The notes below the pieces were generated by a model. It did not search any database. It saw only the letters and a program-made list of their open reading frames with translations, and was not told the DNA's origin. A DNA stretch of 64,000 nt from positions 22,258,001 through 22,322,000 of the forward strand of contig OZ004613.1 in assembly GCA_963924565.1 (NCBI GenBank), in the 5' to 3' direction. The DNA comes from Ascidiella aspersa. Lineage: Eukaryota. A program made the position numbers and the translations under genes. Numbering within the stretch: the stretch's first letter is position 1; each line of letters starts with the position of its first letter. Shown here piece after piece: positions 700 through 40,000 of this stretch.

Positions 700-1771
700 A
701 TTCCTAAACGTAAATTGTGCGTACACCTATTTATTTTTGTAAACTCTAATAACTAACTTAGTACTGTCTGCTTGCATTTATTTTTTCAATTGCATTTTAT
801 TGCTTAATTAGCCACAATCTATACCAGTCGCCGGGACTCCGTTTGTTCATTGCAGCTAGAATTTATTGTTTACTGGGATACTTTAACGTTGGCGAAAAAT
901 CTTACAGCGCTCATGCTAGTCGGAAGAAAATTTGCGTCACCGCGTGATATAGCAGCGTAACTTCAAACATGATTACGGCATCGCGAAAAACAGAGAAGAT
1001 AGCGCGAAAAAAACTCAAAGCGGTACAGACAAAAAAATAAACCGAAATTAATAGACGTAAATAACAGGAAACGATGTGGATTGTTAGAACTCGATACACA
1101 GTCAATAATGTCGTTTTCTATGGTCGGTGGAGCGAAACATTTACTGCGATTTGATTTTCAGGCCGGAACTTTATGGTAACGGTAGAGAGACCTACGGAAT
1201 GTTAGGCGTAAGAGAGTAAAAGGCGGAACGTACGTATTAAAAAAACGAACAAAAGCGTTTTGCAGCAGCAGCGGATAATTGCACCGAAAAACAACAACGA
1301 CGATAAAGACGAAACAAATGGGAATGGGTGGAATTTCATGGAAATATATAAAATAGAAAAACAAAGCTGACGATTTGCTTCAGTGAAGCGTTTAAATTAC
1401 AAACAAATCATTGTACAACCGCAAGCGTCCGCCCTGAATACAGACAAAAACTGCAAACTGTTCGGCGCTTTAAATGTAAAGAGGTAAGAAAAAAAAGAAA
1501 CAGAAAATACATCAACTTTGGGTCAGATAAAATTGATTAAAAGTTCGTTTAACGGGGCGTTCTTTCCGGGAATGATTCAAGGGTTGTTGTTTATATTCCT
1601 TAAATACTCCCAAAACAATTATGTGCATCAAGCGTGCAATACATATTGCTCCATCGATGTAATTCCCGCGTACCTTGAGGTCCTATTGAGTCGCACTCGC
1701 TGCTGCGCAGGAGCCCTCTTGCGGGAGCGCCTTTATTCTCGTACCACCGGCAGCTGGCGGCAAAGAGTCGT
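700..1771 (-). other. Probable 3' UTR of the IRF gene with candidate polyadenylation signals
   Basis: AATAAA on the minus strand (plus-strand tttatt) at ~1732, ~862, ~797, ~777 and ~730; the site actually used cannot be determined. Confidence 0.45.
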
Positions 1772-2061
1772 TCAAGAGACTTGTATGGTGCCGTGATGGG
1801 ACAGATGCAAGGACTGCATATGGGGTGAGCGCTGCGGGGGAGAAATCGACCCCCGTCGAATCACGTGGTCAGGTGACGCGCTGGAAGTGGATGACTCCTC
1901 ACGTGACGTCACCTCGGGGGAGTAGTTGCCCCCGTAAGCGCTGACGTAGAGCAGGGAGGGAGGAGAGGACTTGGACTGGCCGGGATAGCTGTGCGGGGTG
2001 ACCGGACTGTTTCTGTCCGAATCGTCGCCGGACGTTCGACGTAGCTTTGCGGGGGAGGCAA
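1772..2061 (-). CDS. IRF4/8-like: IRF terminal coding exon 8 (VASPAKLRRTS...HHGTIQVS*)
   Basis: ctaac...ttttctacaatccattacag| acceptor, phase 1, Ser/Pro-rich ORF ending in TGA at 1774-1772. Confidence 0.85.
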
Positions 2062-5000
2062 CTGTAATGGATTGTAGAAAACTCAGCGTTAGTTGCGCGC
2101 CCTTTGGGACAAGACATGAACTTCATAATTACAAAAAGTTCTGTAAAGAAAATTGGGTCGCCACAGTTGCGCTATTAAACCGACACTTACTATAAAAAGG
2201 TTTAGAAACACTTCTTTAGGTTGAGTAAAACGCACAACGACAGAAGGAAAATCTAAAGTGAACTTGTATTCAAATCCTGTGCAGTGCAAAAATGGCCATT
2301 TGACCTTTTTATGGCGATAATTAATTACCTAAGTTATTCAAAGGCCGACTCAACGTTAAAAGTACCTGTCAAATCGAGCGGAGATCCAACTCGCTTTCTC
2401 TTTAAGTTCTCAGCCGCCGGGGATTCACCTTCTACAGGGTCGGGGTTATAATAACCGCGCGTCGAACCTTCACCTTCTCTAATGCGGGGCAGCGGCGACC
2501 CCCGAAAGTCGTCGAGCCTTCGCTGGGGCGAGCGACCCTGTGACGAGGAGGGCGGTGGGCTCGTGACGTCATCGGTGACGTGGCTTGTGACGTTTATGCC
2601 GTTGATGGCCAGCTGCTTGCTGATCTCGTTGAACGCCCGCTCGCGATTCAGGCTAAACTGGTAAAGCGAGACAAAATTGGTTAGTTTAGCCTTTGCCATA
2701 AAGTATACAAGAGGTTCTGCAATGTAAAAATACGTTGTTGCTGTACAATGCCATACCATCTGTTAACAATTAAAATGCACTGAATTTGTCCTATTGCTTT
2801 GATTAAAGGCCGTTAATTATTTCTGCAGTGTTACTAAACTTGTAGTTTCGCTATATCCATGCGTCGCTAAATGCACTGCAACACCTGATGGATGATTTAC
2901 CATTACATAAGGATAAAATGAATCACGAAATAAGTTGTACATAATTGCCCAATAAAACTTGAAATTGTCGAAAGGCTGATGCTATTTGTTTGCTTTTAAT
3001 TGAAGGAATCTCACCACGCTCACTTTTACCCCTCAAAAACATCAAATTATCCATCAGTGTGCAAATAATCCATGGGAGAACAGTCACCGTATAAAGGCTT
3101 AGCATTTATCATAGCACAAAAAAAAATCCAGAAAAACCCAGGCAATCAGTTTTGTTCTGCTTTAAACGAGCGCGTTTCGGCCGTTTCAAGAACTTAAAAA
3201 CAAATCGGAAGGCGCATGCCTTCATGCTGGCGATTTACCTGATCGCGTGGTTCCGAGCGGCCGGCGCCCGACGAACTGACGTCACCGCTTTGGGGGTGCA
3301 TGTGGACGGCCAGGTTCCGCAGGCCCTCGCCCATGTGTTCCAAGACGCTCTTCATGCGCTCGCGCTCCACTTCTAGTTTCTCGCGCGCCTCCCGTTCTCG
3401 CGCATGCGCACTGCGGAAGTGCGACACCTCGCTCTCTAGCGTCTCTATGCGGCGCTGCGACTCGCCGAGCTTCGTGTACAGCTGGTCGCACTGCGTTGAA
3501 ATATATTGCTGGTTAGTTTACATTGTAGCTTCTAAAACAGGAGTCAGAATCAATCAGATGTAGGGCAACGTGGTTTATTAAAACTAATTAGGCCTACCTC
3601 CAAGTGGCGGCACCGTCTACCTTTGGGAGAATATGGTTGTCCTGAGGACTGGGGCTGATCATTACTGCCACTTCAGGCATTCCCGACCTACTTTTTTGTC
3701 AATGGGAAGAACAAGCCACTTCACCTTTACTTTACACTTACTTTCTTTACTTTTTTTTAGTTCGTTGAAAAAAATTAATAATTAAAACAACAATGTAGTT
3801 CAAGTGGGTCTTGAGTAGGCCTCTGTCGATTTAAAACGATGCTTTGTATAAAACTAAACGCACAACCAAATTTAACTGATTTGCACATTACTGTAACAGG
3901 GTTGCCACAAAGTCTTTGAATCTTTAATAGGCTTTAAATGCCTTCGAATTGATTTACGTATTGAAAAGTCGTTGAAAAACCATAAGTTTTTCTAAAATTC
4001 TTTAGATAGTTTTTCGTCGATTTACTTATTGTCCATCTTGAGTTATGTGTTTAAGAGTGCCGCAGCATAATGTTTTTTAAATTACATTATTTCGTGTTAG
4101 CCATGGTATTCATATATGTATAAACAGTATACTGTTTTGTTATTAAAAAATATTCAAAAACTGTGAAGCGATCTTTGAAAACCTACAATTTTTTTTTTTA
4201 AAGTCTTTAAAATTTTATATTTATTTCATAAATGTCTGGCAGCCCTGTGTAAGAAAAGTGTTCAGCAAAGAGAAATGTTATTTTATATCTGTCAAAGCTA
4301 AAGTCTTAATAAATGGGGTTGTGGACTTTTAATGTCACGCTTTATAAATTAGTTGGGTTTGATAATTACGTTAAGCAAATCAACAAAATATTTCAAGGAT
4401 AAGCAATGATGAGCTTAAAAAGCAAATGCAATAATTTGCTCTAAAATAGAACCGAGATACAATGCGTTTGGTAACAACTGTAAGGAAACTAATGTGTATG
4501 CAAGTGATTTACCTTCTTTCGAACAGTATATAGGATATTTGTGCATTGTTTTACTCTACAGTCTCCAATATAAATATTTAGTACTCAATAAACAAAAACC
4601 ATAAGTTAAGTCGAATCTATAACCAGTATTATTTTGACTAGAATTTTAGTGCTTCGACCAGGTTAAACAGCGCGCCTATGAGCGACAGTCACTGCGAGCG
4701 ATTGTTCAAGACTATGTCCAGCACTTGTGTACATCAGCAAAAGCGCTCTGGCTTTGTGCACAACGCCAAATCTCACACTGCGTGAGAGGCGGCGGCAATT
4801 AGCAAGCGCAGAAGCGCGCGGGCCGCGAAGGCCGCCGGCCGTTGATTTGAATATTATAATTGCGAATTCTGCTTCCCGCCCAGGGGTATAGTGCCGGGTG
4901 CTCGCGCGCGTTTACGGCAATAAACAGTGGCGCGCTTTCGCCCGGACGGGACCAGCCAGTCGGTCTTACCGCGGTGCTCTTATCCTCGCTTGCATCTCTG

Positions 5001-8000
5001 CGCATCTACGTGGTCGAACTTTGCAGCTCTCCAGGCAAAACAGAGACGAGCCACAAATGGAAAGTGAGAAAAGGGCGGTGCCACGAAATGCTTGCCTAAC
5101 ACTGCCGCCGTGCGCTGTAGCTTAACGCGTTCTCGACCAGCGGCACGAAAAGCTTAGATTCCCGACGCCGTGCGAAATTTAATCTTTCTTAGAGACCTCT
5201 GCGATTTTAACTGCCTGGATTTGTTTTTTTGGCAGCTTTTTGCGAATACCAAGTTTAGTTCGTTAAAAATTATGGCATTATTTTTAAATGAAAATGCTTT
5301 GTCCCAGTTGGCAAACTTACGTTTTTGCGAATTTCGTCGGAATCGAATCCGTTGTTTTTCTCGAGTTGATCGAGTCTTCTGTAAAGTTTTCTTTCTTCTG
5401 ACCTCAGCTTGTTGTTCTCATTTTCCAATTTACGAGCAAAGGTCTAAACCGCAGAAACAAAAGATTTCTCAGAAAAATTGAACTTTTATTGTTTAAAAAT
5501 GCTTTTATTGTTTTAAGTTGCTATTCTGTGATTAAAACCGTGCACTTTTGCTACTAACTTAAACGGCTGAGCATCCTTAAAAATGAGCACGCTTAATATG
5601 TGTTGTTCTGCATTGCTGATCAAGATTGTAATCTCGCTTTCAAGAGGCACTTTCTTCAAGAGCGTGGAGAGGTAAGGACATTTTGTATTCGCCCACCAAA
5701 TATCGCAAGTCAAAATGCCATCCCACGTTTAGATGTTATTTCCCCGGTTTCAAGCGATTGGCGCGGTGTCGCAATTTTATGTAATTAACAGGAGGGGCAT
5801 TTCCCAGCGCAGTCTGCCGCGAGCCAAATCGCGGCACAATGTGGCGCAAGCCACAATTCTCAGAGACTTATAGCTTGCGGCGGCCTGGCCGGTCTCTCTG
5901 TGTGCGTGCCGTTGCTTTCTTTTGGAAGCTAGGAGTACTAGTTTTAATGCACACGGCACAACTAAGCCGCCATATTAAACGCCACGCAACGCCCGCAGAA
6001 CCGGAATCCTGTATTTCGCGCATCGAATCGCGAATAATAACACCTTGCCAACGTAGTCGGACTGCGGCTGATTTTTTATGTCGTCAAATGGCAAGCATGC
6101 GTCACGACGCAGTAGTGCGTCAGCATGTCTATTCGCAACGCCAGGTCAGCACACTCACCAGCTGCTCTTGGTACTTTTGTTCGACCGCGATCGCTTGCGC
6201 CGTCATGTGCTTGAGCGGTCCCATGATAGCCGGGTTGTTGAAGGCGAAGGGATTCCTAAGACCTTGGGACGCAGAAAACACAGGGGGAACCGTGGCAGCC
6301 GCCGCAAAGGAGCTGTGGAAGCCGGGCAACATGGGGTAGCGCGCGTTGATGGGGCTCAGGTCCGGTAAGGCGACGTGAGCTGGGTCTTGGGGTATGCCGT
6401 CGGTGGTTGGGAGAGGCAAGGGAAGCATCGCAGACGACATCGGGGGCTTGAAGGGAATTCCGCCGGTCTGTGAGAACCAGAAAGCCGGCGAGTTGAGCTG
6501 GCTGGCGCTCGATGTCAGGAGAGGAGCTGCGCGTGGCTGCGGCGGCGAGGCGGTGAAGCGTTGCACTCCCTGCACCGAGAGGAAACAATATGGAGATGGT
6601 TGGCAAACTATCTATAGCGCTAGCGTTTTTTTTTTTGCTTTTATACCCTGAAGGTGACGATGTTTCAACGAGATGGGGTAAAGTGTAGAAAAGTGCCAGA
6701 AAATGGAGCCATTTGGAATTAATGTATGCTGGCCGCGTGATTACATCATCGCCGAAAAGCCTTTTTTGTGTTTTTTGCAGTTACATTAATACGATTTTGC
6801 TTTATTTCATACTATTTTTTGATAATCTTGTTGTAATGATTTTAAAGCAAAAAAAAATAAACTTTCACACATTTGCGGAAATATTTCATTCCTTTGGATT
6901 CCATTGTTACCTCTGAGGAATTGTTTCTTCGGTAGGTGCTGAACGGCTTGGTCCAGCTTTCGTTTTCCATTGGGTGCAAGTACGATGACGTAGGCGACAC
7001 GCTGCTTGATGACGTCATATGGTCAGTGTCGTGGCTCTGGCTGCGCTTGTAAAGTCGACGACGGATTTGCGATGCTAAACAAAAGAAGAAAGCGTTACTT
7101 TAACCATAAGTATACGCAAATCTGCTTATCTAAACTGCTTATCGTTTTCAGAAAATGTTCAGTAAAGATTTTAAAAAATAAAATAAACAGTATCTTAATT
7201 TGTTAAAAACTGCATTTTTAATGTTTTGTCAACTGGACAAAGTTTAATCATAATTTTTAATCCAGTTATTTAGCTTTCAGCGTTATTAAACTACACAAGT
7301 CCTCAAAACAGTTTTTGCTTGCGACTGACTTCTTAGCCTTTAGTGAATATTGTCGACAATCTCGCAGCACTCTGGTTTTTCGGTTGACCGAAGTTTCAAC
7401 CAACAAAATAATACTTTTAAGAATCGACCGCCATTTAACCTTACAAAAGCCTACAAATGGTTTTCATTTCGAATGGCTGAAGTGTCGCCGAATCGCTTAC
7501 GGCCCAGGTCGCATATCGCTAGCCTTGGCGGCCGAATAGCGAGCTAAAAATCAACATGTCGCAGACGTCTAGTTTGTATATTTTAAAGTTTGCCAATATA
7601 AACTAAATTTGCATATCATAAAGTAGTAAATTTCAGACTGGGCTTTAGCTACATTGGCTTTTAAAACAATGATAACAATACGTCGTCATGGAAATAATGA
7701 ACTACAAGTTTTCAGGAGTCTGGCAAGAATCGCTGGCGACTAACTTCGTTTCCAGGAAACACGCCGCTGCAAATCGCAGCACTCAGGTTTTCAAAGGACC
7801 CTGACTGCGGCACGCTCGCTCACCTTTATGCACAGGCGGCAGAAGCTGGTATACTCGATAGGGTTCGCTGATGTCCAATCGACTGCGATCCGGCAACTCT
7901 CGAATGTCCGGCATCTTGTTGAGGGCGCACCTCAGCCGAGTCTTCCACACTATTGGCTCGGGTTTGTCAATACCTTCCCTGTATCTGCCGCTGTGTTTGG

Positions 8001-11000
8001 CCCAGGCCTGTACGGGAAGAAATACAATCGCAATTTAGTTGATTGGAGCCAAGTGCCTTCAAGCCTGTGGTGAGGGCTCGAAATGCAAATTGCTTCATTT
8101 AGGCGCAGTTAAAATTCATCTCACAATTACTGGTCGCGTTCGTCGGCCATATTAAAGTCACGTGCACAAATGTAAGTGTTTATTGCGCGAGGAAGATGTG
8201 GTGTCTTACTCAGTACAGCAACGAGTGTATAATTTTATCCTGAAGCTATCCCAACAATTAATACCAGAAACAAATTTTCTCTCTTGTTCAGCACTTTAAA
8301 AAACGTTCACTTGAATAGGGATTGAACGTAACTTTAAGTCAATAGCATTTTGTTGGCTGCAGAGCTTGGCGCCCCAATCGGAGGACCTAATTTGCATGCA
8401 ATTTTTGCCAGCGGAAAGTGCCCCGTCTTGCACTGCAGCGATTACCAGGTAACCGGGAAAGGCGCATTACTGCGAGCGCGACAAGATCTGTCGATGCCTT
8501 CTCTCACGAGCGACGGTATTTTTGTCCAGTCTATATAAACCCAGGAGAAATACTCGCGCTATCGCTGCTCTAATCCTGAATCGAAACGGACGCGCGGCGC
8601 TACGGCAGGGAAATGTGTCAACATTAAATCAAAAATAACTCTGACCAGCGCAAACAAGCGACCATCATTGAAAAACTAACTTAACCGGTACAGCGTACGG
8701 GCCTGCTAAAATCACGATGCAATTACCAGTTCTGGGAAGGCATCCGTCAGGATTACGTTGACGGACTTGGGAGAGGAGAAACTTCGTTCCCGTGATCCGA
8801 CGCGTATTAATAACGTTTCGCTCATTCGACGTGGTGGAAAATTGTCGACGGGCGCTCACAATCTATTTTTGATTCCAGGCGTTTTGTTTTATTTCACCGT
8901 TCCTAATGACACCTTTGTTGTCCACAACACGCTGGACAACAAGCCTAAACACCCGCGCTAACTGTGTGATGTGGCAGCGGACATTATATTTCGTGTCGAT
9001 GGGACGCTCACTAATTAATTCCTCTCAATTAAAATACTCACATCGCGGGATAAATGGGACAGCTTACGTATATACGACTAATCTGTTGTCGCAAAGTTAG
9101 AAACCAATGCAAAAGTTGCTCCACAAGTTTATGTTTAACGCTTGCTGCAGTTGTATGAGTCACACCAAACCGCCAAACGACAGTCTGATCTTCAAGTTTA
9201 GCTGAACTTTTGCGCTGCTAAACATTGCCGCCGCCATTTTGGATGAATCATTTTTATTTTCGTTAATAAGTTTTGGTGGTCGGGCTAATTCAAACAAAAA
9301 AGAATCGTTCCGACGCAACTTTGCAAAATATACCACAAGATAGCTGAGATCAAACTCGTTCCTTACCATAAAAATCTTTGAATCCTCATCCAAGTTGTAA
9401 TCTTGTCTTCCAGCGTGCTTCCAAGGCATTCGGAAAATTGTGTTTTCGTCGTTTTCCCATACTAGGCCTGGTATTGTACCGCTGTCAAAAGCAAGGCGAT
9501 AACATTACAATATTCTCTACAACGCACAGTATCATCTTGGGGTGATTGAGCTTTTTGTGTTTGTGCTTAAATAGTTGCAGCTGATTTTCAAGTATTAAAA
9601 TTGTTAAAATGTCGGTTACTGCTTAATATGTGATTGCTCCTTTGCTCATAGTGGCTCGTATCGTTTGTCACTACTTCATACGTTTAATGCCGACAAAGTT
9701 ATCACTTGGCTACTGTAGGCGTGACGGTTTACTATGGGTAAGATGCCCTTCTCATGATGTTTGACTAGTTCGCTATACATCAGTCGCAACCAGGGTCGTG
9801 CTCTTTGCAATCAATAATCGTGTAATGACTACTGCCCAATGTAAATAAAATTTAGATTCATCGCATCTCTGTTGTCGTCATTGCTATCCGTAACGTAGCT
9901 TTTTTACACACAAGATTCATAAACATGTATACATTTATTGAAACCGGCGGAGACGCCAAACAAAGCAAGTTTTATAAAAGTTGTTATTTGGTTTTTGAAG
10001 TGACAACTTTACATGTTAAATACCTGATAGGATGTTAAAAAACGTAAAACTGTAACTCAGATGTACAGTAGCCAAGTTCTAAGAACGGTAGGTAAAAAGA
10101 AAAATTGTTTTCTGACCATTCGCCATTCTCGAAGGTTCCCCCCAATTCATTCTTACTTAAATAATTAAGCAGCCTCAATGGTTTTAATTTTTTTTCTTTA
10201 ATTTTAATGACGACTCTAATGCACACTTTAAAACATTAAAATTTGCGAAAATTCGTTAAGAATATTAAAAAAAAACATGTGTTTTTGTAGTGAAACGCTA
10301 ACGCAAAGAAACGAAAAACTGTATCAAAACTAAAAAAATGCCAAGTTTATTATATTTTTTAATTTTGCGTTATTGCAAAATTGTAAACTCAAGTATAACA
10401 TTTTATGTTTGTTGCATTTCAATAGACGAATTTCTTGCATTATAAATTTAAAAACATGTTTCAGCTTTCTGCTTTAACAAAACCTAATAATTCCATATGC
10501 TATACATTGCGCCCATTTTACATTTGTGTCGTAATCTTTGATAATTTCAACGGTTTTAACGTGGAAAGGCAGGCTCATTGTTGGAAAATAATCCCTAGGC
10601 TTACTTTATCGCTTGTAAAACTCGCAGCTATCGTTTCAAATATACATTAACCTTAAAAAGATGTTCGATTAACACAGTGGGCCTGTGTTTGAGTTACAGC
10701 AGAATAGAATCAGTGTTATAGAGAACGTTGCATATAAATCATCGTGTGTTTGCAAAATTACAAAGTTCGCCTTGCCAAAAATGTCGACATTAACCTTGAG
10801 CAGAAGTCAAGAGCCTAACGGTATATATATATATGCGTTACCCAATAGTACCTTTATTTCGTCCAAAATGATCCCACGTATTTTTGTGCTTTGACTTTTC
10901 GATCCTAATCGCTGCGTAAAATTTGGTGTTTCAACTAAAGTGGGTGGCGCAAGTAGGGTTATTTTGAAATTCATGCCGCGCTTTATCCGAAACGTTTGAA

Positions 11001-11234
11001 GCTGAAGTGTACATTAGCGCGCAATTTAACTTCCAACATATCGTAATAGGCTGTAAAAACTCGTATCAATTACATACAAACGTTGTTTGAACTGTTCTCG
11101 GAATCTTACCTGTGAATCATCTTGACGAGCCATGTTCTAAGTCGGTCTCGATACTCTGGTGCATAAATTTCCGAATCTGCGCTGTCTTTTCCGTTGGCTA
11201 TCGTTTCGTCTGTTGTGCTGCCTTCCATGGCCAT
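1772..11234 (-). CDS. IRF4/8-like: Interferon regulatory factor, IRF4/8/9/10-type DBD with atypical coiled-coil C-terminus; join(11234-11110,9481-9367,8007-7824,7074-6911,6569-6159,3490-3239,2657-2366,2061-1772), 1833 nt, 610 aa
   Basis: Eight GT-AG-bounded exons join with matching phases (2,0,1,0,0,0,1) into one ORF from ATG to TGA. The N-terminus has all five IRF tryptophans: RLRTWLVKMIHSGTIPGLVWENDENTIFRMPWKHAGRQDYNLDEDSKIFMAWAKHSGRYREGIDKPEPIVWKTRLRCALNKMPDIRELPDRSRLDISEPYRVYQL. WKTRLRCALNK and PWKHAGxQDYN are characteristic of the IRF4/8/9/10 group. Confidence 0.93.
2366..2657 (-). CDS. IRF4/8-like: IRF coding exon 7 (FSLNRERAF...KRKRVGSPLDLT)
   Basis: ctaac branch-like site plus ctttaccag| acceptor; AG|GTACTT donor, with an alternative in-phase donor at 2429. 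Confidence 0.82.
3239..3490 (-). CDS. IRF4/8-like: IRF coding exon 6, coiled coil (CDQLYTKLGESQRRIETLESEV...EPRDQ)
   Basis: tttcaacgcag| acceptor, CAG|GTAAAT donor, 252 nt, heptad pattern. Confidence 0.85.
3590..3760 (+). repeat. Possible 3' end of a SINE/LINE with a (TTTAC)n-like tail
   Basis: A GC-richer block ends in ctttactttacacttactttctttac; a similar tail occurs at ~27727-27748. Confidence 0.3.
3897..4247. mobile_element. MITE (CAGGGTTGCCA-type TIR) in IRF intron 5
   Basis: TIRs cagggttgcca / tggcagccctg, flanked by the direct repeat tgtaa. Confidence 0.65.
6159..6569 (-). CDS. IRF4/8-like: IRF coding exon 5, Pro/Ala/Ser-rich linker (GVQRFTASPP...EQKYQEQL)
   Basis: tgtttcctctcggtgcag| acceptor, |GTGAGT donor, 411 nt open, GC-rich coding-like composition. 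Confidence 0.88.
6911..7074 (-). CDS. IRF4/8-like: IRF coding exon 4 (ASQIRRRLYKRSQSHD...RRNNSSE)
   Basis: ttcttcttttgtttag| acceptor, AG|GTAACA donor; phase 1-0 exactly bridges exons 3 and 5. Confidence 0.88.
7824..8007 (-). CDS. IRF4/8-like: IRF coding exon 3 (AWAKHSGRY...WKTRLRCALNK...PYRVYQLLPPVHK)
   Basis: tttcttcccgtacag| acceptor, AG|GTGAGC donor, 184 nt, DNA-recognition helix. Confidence 0.97.
9367..9481 (-). CDS. IRF4/8-like: IRF coding exon 2 (GTIPGLVWEN...PWKHAGRQDYNLDEDSKIFM)
   Basis: cttttgacag| acceptor, |GTAAGG donor, 115 nt, clear IRF DBD motif. Confidence 0.96.
11110..11234 (-). CDS. IRF4/8-like: IRF coding exon 1 (MAMEGSTT...RLRTWLVKMIHS)
   Basis: ATG in aaattaaATGG context; donor AG|GTAAGA; upstream acceptor ttttttgtag| places the exon start at 11265; contains the first DBD Trp. 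Confidence 0.9.
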
Positions 11235-14200
11235 TTAATTTCAGTCACAGTTCGTTGCTAAATCGCTACAAAAAATGACAGTATTGGTTAATTTACGCAA
11301 GGGTCAATTTCAGAATAAGGCTACATCGCATTTTTGCACTGCTTTAACCCTATTCTTTTCCTTTCTAGACTATTGTTTTCACCGTATCTTTCCGGCGTTA
11401 TCATTTAAAATGGAAACTTAAAGTCCTTACGTAACCTTGCTATCTTTTTTGTAATCGGGTAACGTCTTGGAAATCTGACTGCTTCCAAATGCAGTAAACA
11501 CAAAAAACAACTCGATTATTTTTCAATCATTTTTACAGACGACCTTGCGTTTATATCCGAACAAATATCCTTACGGAGAACTCATCAAAATGCCCGATGG
11601 AAGAAATAATATACATTTTCCCACAAAAGTAGCAAAAACTAAGGAGACTTTGTTAAGCTTAATGAACGTAGAACATATGCGGTTTTTGATTATAAAAGCC
11701 CGAATGGCGTATCGAGAGTCCCTTCTTTCCCCCTTTTGCCTTTTTTTCTTTTCCCCATTCTCGCTTTAGCAAATTCTAGGATCACGTTTTCTCTCTTCGC
11801 AAGCGAAGTTATACGTATTCCCGAAATAAATGCGACCACGAAGCTTATAATGTTGCACGTCGGGAGTAATTGGGTGTTAGAGTTGACACGCACTTTAAAA
11901 TAAGCTGGGGTGGGGGCACGTAGTGCAGTAAATGACGTGCAGTGGTCAACGGGACAATTTCTGAGAAAAAGTCGCTCATTTGTTTTGTGAGTTGGTAATT
12001 TCAGTGTGATTAGTGGAAAAACGCCCCATTTACTAAATTATCGAAACTACACCAAATGAATGTCAACGCGTTTATGGATGTAACCGACTACTCAAAATTT
12101 CTTACGATTTTTCAAACTAATAAGCAAGTTGATAAATACCTTACATTTTTCACATTTAAGCAATGGAATAAACTGCTTGTTTCTCACGCATTTTTCGTGC
12201 AATTGTTCCAGCTTGATATAAATCGTTAACTAATACCCACAAAAGGGCAAAAACAGGAAAGTTTGTTTTGTCGCATTTTTTTCATAGCAGTTCATTCAAT
12301 TCGATACGAACAAAGTACTAAAATGTCGAATTTTTTCCCCCAAATAAATCAGACCAAGTTTCGCAGCACGTCTGATTTCATTTCACGCGAGAGCGACAAG
12401 TTAAATTTTCAATTGGCAGAACTGTCGACTATTCACGTAAGCGGACAACGACACTTTCAGCCTTTTTTTAGGAAGTGCCACTTTTTAGGCTTGGCAGACG
12501 TGTCGGGTACAGCCGAAATACAAAATGGGCGAAAAGTGGCGTTTCAATGCAAGTGGGGGCGCGACGATCGTCGAAAAGCGACGATTAAAAAAGCGAAATG
12601 AATGCAAAGCTGAAATGCGTGGAAGCCGCGAACCGGAAAACCGCCGTCGAGTGTTGCTTGGTGGCGCATTCCTAACAAGACTCTTCCCGTGTTAGGCCCG
12701 CCACTTTTCGGAGAAGGCAGGCGGCGATAAGCTGGCCGAATTGACAAGCGCTTTTCTGTCGCCGTGCCCAAGTGATTGCTGAATAGACCGTCTTCTTTCA
12801 TGAAACGAGTAGCTGACATTTTACGCGGGCTTGGCGGGCCGTTTTACATCTGAGAACACGGGCGTTCAGGCAGATGCCTGCCTGAAAATCGAAGGTTAAG
12901 CGCGGCATCTGCCAATATGTCTCTCGATTATGGCAGCTAAACATAGCAGACCCGTCAGCGCTAAAGCTTTTTCACGTTTCGCTGCAAAGCATTACGCCTC
13001 ACATCGGACTAATTCTCCCAAGCTGTGTGCGCGTTTTGTTTATTTTCCGATAAATAAAATCTTGAACTTTTAAAAATGACATATTGCGTTTGTACTTTTG
13101 TTTGAAAGCGATTTCTCAGTTGAATGAAAAGTAGATAACGTGTTTTTCAATTCAAGTATCGTTTTTTATGTGTTTTTTGTCTTCCGAAATATGCTGTGAA
13201 AAGCCAGAAATATTTCACGATGTTAGAGCATAATGTATGGGGAATCAGAATTTAATGTTGAAATACTGTTACATATATCTTTTGAATGCAATAGCGAAAT
13301 CTTTTTTATCCAGGTTAAAATACGTTTTACTTTGTATGTTTAGGTATATGTTGTTTACTTAAAGCAGCAAAGTCAATGCGTGATGCGACAAACTAATAGA
13401 GACTTTACTGCCTTACTAGCAGCCTATGCACGAAAGTGCGCAAATCTGTTGTGATCCCTTTCGTGTCTATCACAACGCATTGTGGTCCTTCTGGGGCCGC
13501 GCAGCTCAAAACCGCCGTTGCATAAAGTTCGATTTCGTAGCAAGACGCACGTCAAGTTCGCCGACCATACAGATCTAAGATAGGCGGTCGCGGATTGCTC
13601 AGCTATGCTTTGCGTGTTGGCTTCACTTGCTAAGGTCAAAACAAGCTGGTGGTGTGAGTTTCGTGCGCCTACCGACTCTTCCCATAATCGCGTATCACGA
13701 ATTGTATGTGGTTTCGCTGCAGCTTTTAAGAATACGCCCAGCACGAAGGCATCGGGAATTCACCAGCGGCGGTTCGCTCGAAATCTAAAGAAGTATTTCT
13801 TGCTGGCGATGCTTGCGGGTCGAAAGGTTTAAGAACGCTTCGCTTTAAAGCGACTATAGCAGCCGGTATTTCGTAAAAGTTTGTGTACATTTGCAATATC
13901 ATGCCGCATTTGAAGACTGCAATTTGTATGTACCAGCACATCATTTTTTATCATAATTTTTTTTCAAGGGTGTTTCATAAATTAAGATTTTTCCTTTACG
14001 TAAATCCTAAAAAATCTATAATAAACCAATACACTAAGTAGATGAAGTATACACGCACCTTGAAATCGTTAGCGCGCTTTAAGTAAAATCGTAAACCAAA
14101 GCCTATATATATATGCCGCAAACTAAAAGCTAAAAAAAACGTTCGGGTTGGCAACTTTCCTGTTCGGGTTTCGGTGAGCACACACTCGCCAAGCCGCGAT

Positions 14201-37032: not shown

Positions 37033-40000
37033 TAATTTTCATTGCCTTTTATGTATGCATTTAAAATCTTTCCATTGTGTTTTTTTAACACATTTCTATA
37101 TAACTTTGTTCTGCAATATCCCAACTGTTTACAAAATATGTCTTAAGGGGCCCATAAGCGCTACATCACAGATGATACAAGTTGTATATATGAGCGTTTC
37201 CTACCCTTGAAAAGGTATAGGTTTTCCGCCGAAATTGTAGAAAGCCACACGTTTTATACTTTCGTTTTACAGAAACTCTTTTCTGTGTGTCATGCACATT
37301 GCATTTTACGGCCTAAACGTGCTTGCAGTCAAGCGTAATAGACGCAAAGTCATAAGGTTTTTATAAAACATGTTATGAATAAAATGTTTGTTGCTTACCA
37401 AGGAGAAGTGAATCCGCGATAAATTCTTGAAGCCCCGTGAAACGAAATTTTCTTTTTCGAAATTTGGCTGTAATGTAGAAGGATATTTATGATGAAAGAC
37501 AGGACTCCATTTTAATATATCTATAGGATTTATTGTTACCGCTTATAATATATTTCAAAAGTATTTTATTTGTTGAGGTGCCTATATTTGTTAACAGTAA
37601 AAATGTCTCTAGCCTATATCTATAACTTGCAATACCAATCAAAAAGTATTTTTAATCAAATATTTGTCATAAAAAAATCACAAATTGATTCAGCTTTTGT
37701 TCACTCATGTCAGGAATTGTAGTTTGATGTGAACGCTTGAGCCTTTATTAATCGTTTTAAACTGTCAGATTAATATACAAGTGCTTGCGCCAACTTTCGT
37801 TCGCGCTTATAGGTTTCAGATTTAGTGTTTTCGAACACACTTACCGTCTCTCTGAGTAGCTTTGTTCTATTGTAACGGCTTCAATATTTGCAACAGAATT
37901 TATTTTTGCCTATCGCTGAACTATGTTACAATACAACTGAGAGCGAACGTGAAAACTAGCTGTTCTTATTGAAGCAATGCCACCGCAAAGTCAACCGCAC
38001 GGCAAACAATGTCTCTCTTTGACTGCAACCAAAACAAAAAAGTCGCCGTCCATAACGTATAACATATACCGCTATCCATTTTCCCGACTTTTCTATTGCA
38101 ATATTTTTGCCTAAATTACACTAACGCAAACAAACGCCCAAACGCCTGTATGGAAATTGATGTAAATCGGAATAGACACAAATTCTTCACTTTACATGCT
38201 AATATTTCGGTGACGCATTCTCATTTGTTCGCACCCTGAACTTATAAAATAATATAGCTGAGTTACAATACACTATAGCCAATGTAGATGGCATTCACAA
38301 AAGGTGTTACAGTCATCAAATTGAAAACAAATCGTAGTTTTTATCTTACGTTATGTATATAAATTAAAGAAAACCTGTGACAGTTTAAAACACACTAAAG
38401 AAATCAACTGTGATGACGGGGATTTTGCTAAACTAATAGAGCAGCTTCACTCACTTTTATAGATTAGTTTTCTCAGATAATGTTTTTATAAATTAGTTAA
38501 GTTGTCTGTTGAGTTTGCTTGTTTTTAGCTGTTTAGCGCATTTTGCTAAATAGCTCTTACGCCCTCTTGCGAAAAAAAGTTTATAAACATTATTTTTCCG
38601 TTCATATTTTAGCGTTTGTTTTGGCGGTTACAATTTGCGATAACGCTTCCATCTGAACGTTTCCCACTTCCAAATGGAACAGGTTAAAACTAAAAATCTC
38701 CTGGGTTATTTAAAAATTGTAATGGATCCGAACAGAAGGGTTTAGCAAAATTGAAAGACCTCCGGCTAAAAATTATAACCAAGTAACAGGTAAACAATAA
38801 ACAAGAGCACTCGTTCACTTATTTTCCATAAACGCGTGCAATTTTAAGTGCAATTTCGTTTGCTGCAAACTTATTCGAATTGCGAAAGCGACTTTGCACA
38901 CATGATATGACTCGGTCAATTTGCAGACAGGGCCCCGGATTTGTACCGCATACCTTCCGTGCCGCATACAAATCTCTTCTAGTTTAAATACAAGCAACTA
39001 AATGGTAATTGGAATCTCACCTGCGTTATTCCCGCGTGTTGTGTTTACGTTGAGGCCGACTTTCCTTGAAATTTCGAAATCGATGGATTGTTGACTTTAT
39101 CGCCGCCGTTTACTTTTTCGATTTCCAACGCAAATTTTGCCTCAACCTATCAACAAATCTCCGCGTGCTGCTGGAATGCAAAGCGAGATATTAAAGGTGT
39201 GGCCGCCGATTTATACTATACCACCAATCAGCAGTGCAAATGCGTCATGGCTTTGCTGAAAGCCGTTAGCATGCTGATGGGCGCATCTGCATTCTAGCAA
39301 ATTTTCGGGTAACTTCACGACAACGCATTAACACGCGTGCCTCGCGTGCCTCATATCAGGCCCGCGCATATAGGAGATTTATACGTCCTTAAAATAGCTC
39401 GCTTTGGGGGAGAAATTCGCGACGGCAGTCGTACGCATCACTGCATGAAGCATGTACCAAATCGCGCCCGTGTACATCGCACGAAACGCACTAAATCGTA
39501 TTCCGTGACTTGCACGACGTTAGAGAAAACATACTTTTTTACTACAAGTTGATTTTTATAGTACGCAGTGTTCGGTGCGTAACACTATAGCTGTACCCGA
39601 CAGACCTTTCACCTAAAAATCGCAGGTTAAGTGCGTCATATTTTTCGCGGCGTCATGGTGCTACGTGGCGGCCACGCAAAAGTTTTATTTTACAAAATCG
39701 TAAGCGGCGTTCTATATTAAATTCACGAACATATATAAAACCTTGATGACAGTAGATGTGTTTTTTTGCTTTGCGCTATATTCAGCTAAAGGTTATTTCT
39801 ATTGGCCGGCAGTTTTTCTACATTTGTTTTCTTGTTAAGCATCGATGATTACATAGTGTCTTTGCGACAATTTCGTGTAGTTTTACTCTAGATAAGCGCA
39901 GCCAGTACTTTCTCTGTCGCTATTGTCCTGAGACAAAGGTACCCTTCGAGGCTCTACCCACTATCCTGCGGTGTTTTGCGAGGTCTCAGCTCGGCGAAAC

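Follow-up and report, generated by a model that had tools for sequence, protein, structure and literature searches.

A tunicate interferon regulatory factor without an IAD and with a coiled coil for which dimerisation is predicted

We analysed a 64-kb window of the Ascidiella aspersa genome (contig OZ004613.1), whose minus strand carries a gene for an interferon regulatory factor (IRF); positions given below are those of the window. The gene encodes an IRF DNA-binding domain (DBD) followed by a long heptad repeat, for which a parallel, in-register dimer is predicted, and a conserved short motif of the CtBP-binding type. The SMAD/FHA-like IAD (PF10401) is absent from this IRF and from the clade to which it belongs. 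We favour, at somewhat better than even odds, the reading that this tunicate-wide IAD-less IRF is a pre-dimerised repressor of paired GAAA sites, likely acting via CtBP and independent of IAD partners and kinases. A preliminary description, made from the sequence of the window, had already proposed that a zipper stands in place of the IAD; it missed an extra coding exon, the conservation across tunicates, the CtBP-type motif, and a likeness of the coil to the UBAN zipper.

Evidence for the loss of the IAD came from several searches. PF10401 gave no match near this locus in the genome of about 309 Mb, and was present beside nine of the ten other IRF loci. The one other IRF locus without it is the C8 locus; a separate IAD-less IRF paralog of this genome is only 38% identical. 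Our own IAD hidden Markov model (HMM), built from eight proteins, found nothing in the 2179 six-frame open reading frames of the window (best E 2.9), and matched none of 17 clade proteins as against 101 of 102 control IRFs. A profile search with the orthologs scored 7987 candidates and retrieved 119 proteins; PF00605 stood alone in the 15 best matches, and 103 of the 104 others carried PF10401 as well. No IAD-only chain was among the 55 matches of this profile in the PDB. For the Ciona ortholog, AF2 run on a 16-row alignment modelled the DBD, two long helices (residues 268-325 and 330-386, with block pLDDT mostly 71-94 and 53 at the break) and disorder elsewhere, with no beta domain. The earlier expectation of PF00605 without PF10401 at this locus was borne out, and the idea of a zipper in place of the IAD agrees with the two modelled helices and with the homodimer prediction described below.

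The eight exons first proposed have GT-AG joints and an open 610-aa frame, and these stand. The first model had missed a non-coding 5' exon and a coding exon at 5443-5321 (41 aa with heptads, phase 0-0), whose acceptor is good, whose donor reads GTAAGT and which keeps the frame. The corrected model thus encodes 651 rather than 610 aa in nine coding exons with a two-part coil, and its intron phases are 2,0,1,0,0,0,0,1. The Ciona protein P0004 aligned colinearly to eight of the nine exons at E < 0.5, and to the added exon at the colinear position with 39% identity (E 0.016); the end of the ninth exon, 2657-2366, was matched by P0006. At a genomic locus of a relative (L048, 15 kb on one contig), the exon order was identical to that of the window gene, and the exon 9126-9251 was homologous to window exon 5443-5321, with a global score reached by none of 5000 shuffles. 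Between its two coil exons L048 has an additional phase 0-0 helical exon (9705-9803), which is similar to part of the Clavelina protein; no convincing counterpart was seen in the window introns 6158-5444 or 5320-3491.

RNA was examined in a single run (X4), of which about 6% was read, with two samplings of 83 and 81 reads. Nine reads leave position 11266 and continue in a sequence found exactly at 37400-37429, next to a GTAAG donor. A non-coding first exon is joined in this way across a 26.1-kb GT-AG first intron (11266-37398). Coverage by reads of this orientation extends over the first coding exon, the linker and last exons and the 3' untranslated region (UTR). The splicing of the 3' half rests on orthologs, since the thin RNA of A. 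aspersa gave no joint there. The DBD and the coil stand in one protein record in five named ascidian entries. Further orthologs of 442-670 aa were called on contigs of 1662-3018 bases; because these contigs are so short, they are likely assembled transcripts, which would place the DBD and the coil on one mRNA.

The DBD is an intact five-Trp winged helix, as first described, with Trp at residues 35, 50, 62, 82 and 101 and PF00605 matching the exons of Trp 2-3 and Trp 4-5 (Table 1). The closest solved DBD was that of IRF4 (about 67% identity, Foldseek E 2e-15). RCALNK of the recognition helix is identical to IRF4, and R98, C99, N102 and K103 (IRF4 numbering) are all retained. The DBD matched IRF4 at E 4e-59 and IRF2 at E 3e-38, and the domain was not assigned to the IRF1/2 type. 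In the A. aspersa genome PF00605 gave 22 matches, which we grouped into 11 IRF loci. The tunicate orthologs with species names (Ciona intestinalis, C. savignyi, Styela clava, Clavelina lepadiformis and, at 86%, Oikopleura dioica) share 86-94% DBD identity with the window gene. Identity is 55-64% against the vertebrate rows in the comparison, and against the ten paralogs of its own genome it is 22-63%.

In a DBD tree of 70 rows and 110 columns (midpoint root; four rows without a full DBD and one duplicate removed), 16 rows formed one IAD-less clade with a support of 100/99. This clade sat in a 33-row set (96/96) together with molluscan and hemichordate rows and with rows that bear an IAD, mostly of invertebrate type, and outside the vertebrate IRF4/8/9/10 group. 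The earlier label 'IRF4/8-type' therefore holds for the similarity of the DBD and not as orthology. With 110 columns, midpoint rooting, no rows from vertebrate IRF1/2/3/5/6/7 and a bootstrap that had not fully settled, the tree gives this placement provisionally. Three other IRF arrangements were seen during these searches. On contig C7, at 4.50-4.52 Mb, four fast-evolving IRF genes with an IAD lie in tandem (L007, L011-L013, L015, L017, L018, L020). P0013 (1797 aa) combines FIIND and CARD domains with five IRF DBDs, another shuffle of the IRF domain. P0010 (458 aa) joins a clade-type DBD to an unrelated helical C-terminus without a coil, as a second swap or a chimeric contig, and its GGWEQF motif is one that we take to recall Bcl-2 BH2.

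The heptad repeat of the conserved coil exon (3490-3239) reads C,L,I,V,H,R,R,L,L at its a positions and L,S,L,F,E,L,M,M,L at its d positions, exactly as first listed. On an ad hoc heptad scale, its score was reached by 4 of 2000 composition shuffles; 12 of the 16 clade rows scored at least 0.48 on this scale, and the top of the 102 control IRFs scored 0.45. The predicted homodimer of exon residues 1-66 scored 0.58, compared with 0.03 for the best of three controls, and the model was parallel and in register, with a pLDDT of 87 and 100% contact agreement between runs. Among solved microbial structures, the pass mark accepted 21 of 30 pairs and none of 23 single chains; in eukaryotes it accepted 17 of 29 pairs (animals 7/16; 1/7 without a solved relative) and none of 30 single chains. 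The pass may reflect memory of similar solved coils. Taking the dimer by itself, we consider it quite probable that the coil forms one.

A survey across tunicates had been suggested for this segment, and orthologs in Ciona, Styela and Clavelina do carry the coil; the Oikopleura ortholog is IAD-less with a heptad score in the control range. Outside tunicates, no IRF with a coil was found among 44 other representatives of at least 280 aa or among the 102 controls, in a survey covering 150 of 752 matches plus the 119 profile matches. Searches with single exons found one homologue among 593 candidates for the coil exon and none among 445 for the linker exon; such searches are insensitive, because known orthologs were missed. 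A single-protein search of the genome for a paralogous donor of the coil returned only the coil itself and a match of E 0.37 with stops. The symmetric phase 0-0 of the coil exon, earlier read as compatible with exon shuffling, is weak evidence for it: four consecutive introns are in phase 0, which is the commonest intron phase.

The PLDL[ST] motif, of the conserved PxDLS type and located in a disordered region, was present in 7 of 17 clade rows, all of them ascidian-type, and in L048, compared with 1 of 102 control IRFs. A single PLDLS is enough for CtBP binding in EVI1, as reported in PMC11095456. A basic patch stands right after the DBD throughout the clade and, as IRRRLYKR in the window gene, looks like a nuclear localisation signal. 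Ascidian-type rows end in [IVL]-[QE]-V-[TS] and most larvacean-type rows in I-[ED]-[VI]; PDZ, LC8, calcineurin PxIxIT and SUMO-interacting motif are putative labels for this terminus. The larvacean-type rows P0159-P0164 and P0274 (including Oikopleura) have FQRPW in common near the N-terminus, and their C-terminus is acidic and hydrophobic, which we take to be like a SUMO-interacting motif. Motifs of P0159 and P0162 are presumably eh1-like, and hint at other corepressor links where PLDLS is absent.

These features can be combined into a mechanism. IRF4 reads GAAA with R98, C99, N102 and K103, and its homodimer on the interferon-stimulated response element (ISRE) has no protein-protein contact, cooperates through DNA only and binds weakly, as stated in PMC7913761. 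Since all four base-reading residues are kept, the tunicate DBD would be expected to read GAAA as well. The zipper would supply constitutively the contact that is missing in IRF4 homodimers, which could give higher avidity without PU.1, STAT2 or kinase activation. The roughly 200 disordered residues between the DBD and the coil would allow loose site spacing, and PLDLT may dock CtBP and lead to repression of paired GAAA sites. ISRE-like sites in the window numbered 19 and 12 in two counts, above a mononucleotide shuffle; nothing was drawn from them because this null ignores A-runs.

Several observations weigh against a pre-dimerised, CtBP-dependent repressor. Four of the 16 clade rows, including Oikopleura dioica (0.34), lie within the control range of the heptad score. 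Some a/d residues in the core of the coil are polar (H, E, R, R), so that pairing could be weak or could go better with a different chain, and the first coil segment (5443-5321) is poorly conserved. Neither P0159 nor any of the nine larvacean-type rows has PLDL[ST]; the coil and this motif are thus less universal in the clade than the loss of the IAD. Junction reads had been proposed as a check for exons 5-6-7-8; in the thin run X4 no joint among the coding exons, exons 5 to 9 included, reached three reads. RNA depth fell to 0.3 or less on the coil exon, compared with 2-5 on the flanking exons.

In an alternative reading, the coil serves heterodimerisation or the docking of a partner, such as a bZIP factor, a coil of NEMO/ABIN type or some coactivator, and the protein would be a context-dependent activator. 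A specific partner is suggested by the conservation of this core and by the invariant surface residues A28, E37 and E44; the zipper of BATF recruits IRF4 (PMC7913761), and the Pro/Ser-rich linker could activate. In the predictions, however, the homodimer passed and three unrelated partners failed, and the conserved CtBP-type motif does not fit an activator well. We consider this alternative rather unlikely.

The coil also resembles the UBAN zipper of NEMO and ABIN. PF16516 (NEMO CC2-LZ) was the top Pfam family for the coil exon, with 25.1 bits against a cut-off of 35.3, and it matched 7 of 10 ortholog coil segments, every score lying under the same cut-off. When a 10-row coil profile was run against 177,635 PDB sequences, NEMO/ABIN-1 took the top 11 of 26 matches (best E 1.1e-3), and UBAN-family chains made up 17 of the 26. 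With the eight ascidian-type rows only, ABIN-1 was the best non-IRF match and 18 of 34 non-IRF rows were UBAN; TolC and lamin outranked NEMO in this search. Genome-wide, PF16516 gave eight matches, with the coil exon fifth, among D-F-bearing ones. The coil and ABIN-1 are identical at 13 of 38 ungapped positions. The R-R-E patch, equivalent to NEMO R316/R319/E320, is kept in the eight ascidian-type rows, with R33 in seven (K in one) and R36 and E37 in all eight. None of 200 heptad-preserving permutations reached the hhalign score, the probability of which was only 8-34%, and a control profile of other clade coil segments, from a thin and rough alignment, gave no UBAN match.

Other features set the coil apart from UBAN. 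The D-F position is A-H in all eight ascidian-type rows and E-L in two larvacean-type rows, whereas D-F is invariant in the five UBAN exons of this genome. A phase-0 intron six codons before D-F is found in four of the five genome UBAN exons, and is absent from the coil exon and from L048. A single coil sequence did not retrieve NEMO from the PDB; the Atlas search with the Ciona coil gave generic coils only, under 0.9, and was not informative; and Oikopleura dioica lacks the UBAN-like segment. In the protein Kenny, according to PMC6462001, the F312A-equivalent mutation abolishes M1-chain association, and the D-F and R-R-E surfaces are both needed for it.

In view of the weak scores and the missing UBAN intron, we treat homology of the coil to the NEMO/ABIN UBAN zipper, possibly as a captured copy, as a tentative idea with the balance tilting against it, and ubiquitin binding as improbable. 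If the coil is a captured UBAN, it would now likely serve as a dimeriser rather than as a sensor of linear ubiquitin. A captured UBAN that still senses ubiquitin, through which M1/K63-ubiquitin platforms would recruit or regulate the IRF directly and without NEMO, would fit the UBAN-dominated matches, the kept R-R-E equivalents, the permutation test and the blank control profile. It fits poorly with A-H in place of D-F, with the sub-cut-off Pfam and low hhalign values, and with the missing intron, the failed single-sequence search, the generic Atlas coils and the Oikopleura ortholog, and we hold little expectation that it is right. The same low expectation applies to its fuller form, in which a UBAN zipper from the NEMO/ABIN family, part of its own upstream pathway, replaced the IAD of an IRF early in tunicates, and this IRF would read ubiquitin chains via the kept R-R-E, A-H retuning the linkage choice and the signal being coupled to CtBP repression. 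If the coil is a captured UBAN, a signalling adaptor's ubiquitin-binding module would have moved into a transcription factor that it normally acts upstream of. Elsewhere in the genome, one exon at L041:1501-1629 and downstream (contig C8, 303.9 kb) has two tandem DFxxERR UBAN-like motifs, with a second UBAN exon 16 kb away (L042).

That the DBD and coil exons belong to separate transcripts, or that the main mRNA skips the coil and the architecture is an artefact of the gene model, is very hard to believe: the near-zero coil-exon depth between flanking exons of 2-5 and the in-frame skipping that phase 0-0 exons allow would suit it, but all parts occur in one record in the five named ascidian entries, the exon order of L048 is colinear, and the short unspliced contigs encode both parts.

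Table 1. Exons and sequence features of the IAD-less IRF gene, in window positions
Feature	Position	Strand	Basis
Non-coding 5' exon	37399..37464 (far end approximate)	-	Donor GTAAG at 37398; 9 RNA reads, median loose length 65
First coding exon	11110..11265	-	ATG 11234 after in-frame TAA; first DBD Trp; phase 2 donor; RNA depth ~2
DBD exon, Trp 2-3, phase 2-0	9367..9481	-	PF00605 E 5e-11; 85-90% identity in orthologs
DBD exon, Trp 4-5, recognition helix TRLRCALNK, phase 0-1	7824..8007	-	PF00605 E 1e-17; best PDB match IRF4
Exon with basic patch IRRRLYKR directly after DBD, phase 1-0	6911..7074	-	Patch kept across clade
Pro/Ser-rich linker, predicted disordered, phase 0-0	6159..6569	-	Last ~20 residues begin first helix; RNA depth ~2.6
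First coiled-coil segment, more variable, 41 aa, phase 0-0	5321..5443	-	Splice consensus, Ciona match, L048 exon
Conserved coiled-coil exon, 9 heptads, phase 0-0	3239..3490	-	Predicted parallel homodimer
UBAN-like core of coil	3326..3445	-	ERxAREKL and downstream Glu kept; A-H (3409-3404) replaces UBAN D-F
Disordered exon, ends KRKR then PLDLT, phase 0-1	2366..2657	-	Splice model and motif scan
PLDLT, CtBP-type motif	2367..2381	-	PLDL[ST] conservation among ascidian-type rows
Last coding exon, Ser-rich, C-terminal TIQVS	1772..2061	-	Stop 1774-1772; RNA depth 2-5
3' UTR, extends at least to 1000	1000..1771	-	RNA depth 3-5.6, same read orientation as coding exons

Around these exons, reads opposite to the orientation of the IRF mRNA were found at about 5100-7400 and 10100-11100, at a depth of 1-2.6 and over introns and exons alike, which points to a possible antisense transcript. 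A repeat element lies at about 3600-4200, where the summed contig depth in DNA runs was 440-1000 compared with about 70-100 elsewhere. From 11300 to 64000 no convincing long coding frame was seen, the longest stop-free stretch being 216 aa (these frames were not compared with families). The 26-kb first intron and this frame-poor flank make up a large non-coding domain, of a kind usual for developmental regulators.

In Huang 2010 (PMC2885996), the Ciona gene 'IRF-like-scaf_162', or CI3, is nearest to IRF4 and has intron phases 2,0,1,0,0,0,0,0,1, which are those of the window gene plus one more phase-0 intron. On intron phases and nearest human IRF, rather than on sequence, it is probably the Ciona ortholog. 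Ciona 'Irf-r.b' (bioRxiv 2025.05.20.655184) or 'IRF-like' (PMC10433773) may be this gene. The literature searched held no description of the accessions, the coil, the CtBP motif or the UBAN likeness; the gene may be described in Nehyba 2009 or in Zhang 2020 (C. savignyi IRFs), which we know as cited references only. The preliminary description had left it undecided whether the architecture was catalogued in tunicates. The orthologs are indeed in databases (NP_001071742, H2YMS0 and XP_039270408 among them), under names that carry only the IRF domain.

Regulation of IRFs is built on the IAD, through phospho-activated dimers and the partners PU.1 and STAT2, and tunicates are the sister group of vertebrates. 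Tunicates keep one IRF without an IAD whose DBD has barely changed, being much closer to that of Oikopleura than to any paralog in its own genome. This constraint points to an essential, possibly developmental role. A survey table (PMC8122590; column order read from the text) lists two IRF and no IRF-3-domain genes for Oikopleura, and on this count the IAD-less line may outlast IAD-bearing ones there.

Compared with known proteins, the nearest relatives are Ciona NP_001071742 / Q4H3B4 / XP_078492605 ('interferon regulatory factor like protein'), C. savignyi H2YMS0, Styela XP_039270408, Clavelina CAK8671124 and Oikopleura CAG5082114, all of the same clade and without an IAD. The ascidian orthologs have in common the coil, PLDL[ST] and a terminal I-[QE]-V-[TS], whereas Oikopleura CAG5082114 differs in having neither PLDL[ST] nor the UBAN-like segment. 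Vertebrate IRF4, IRF8, IRF9 and IRF10 have the same recognition helix; unlike them, the window protein has no IAD or autoinhibitory tail and possesses the coil and PLDLT. IRF1 and IRF2 lack the SMAD-like IAD, and IRF2 is a repressor. The absence of PF10401 is common to them and the window protein, and an ISRE-type repression would parallel IRF2; the window DBD is much closer to IRF4, however, and to our knowledge IRF1/2 are without a long coil. With the UBAN/CC2-LZ zippers of NEMO, ABIN-1/2 and optineurin (PF16516), the coil has in common the register, E at d and R at a, ERxAREKL and the predicted parallel dimer; it differs in A-H for D-F, in its sub-cut-off score and missing conserved intron, and in sitting within a DNA-binding protein.

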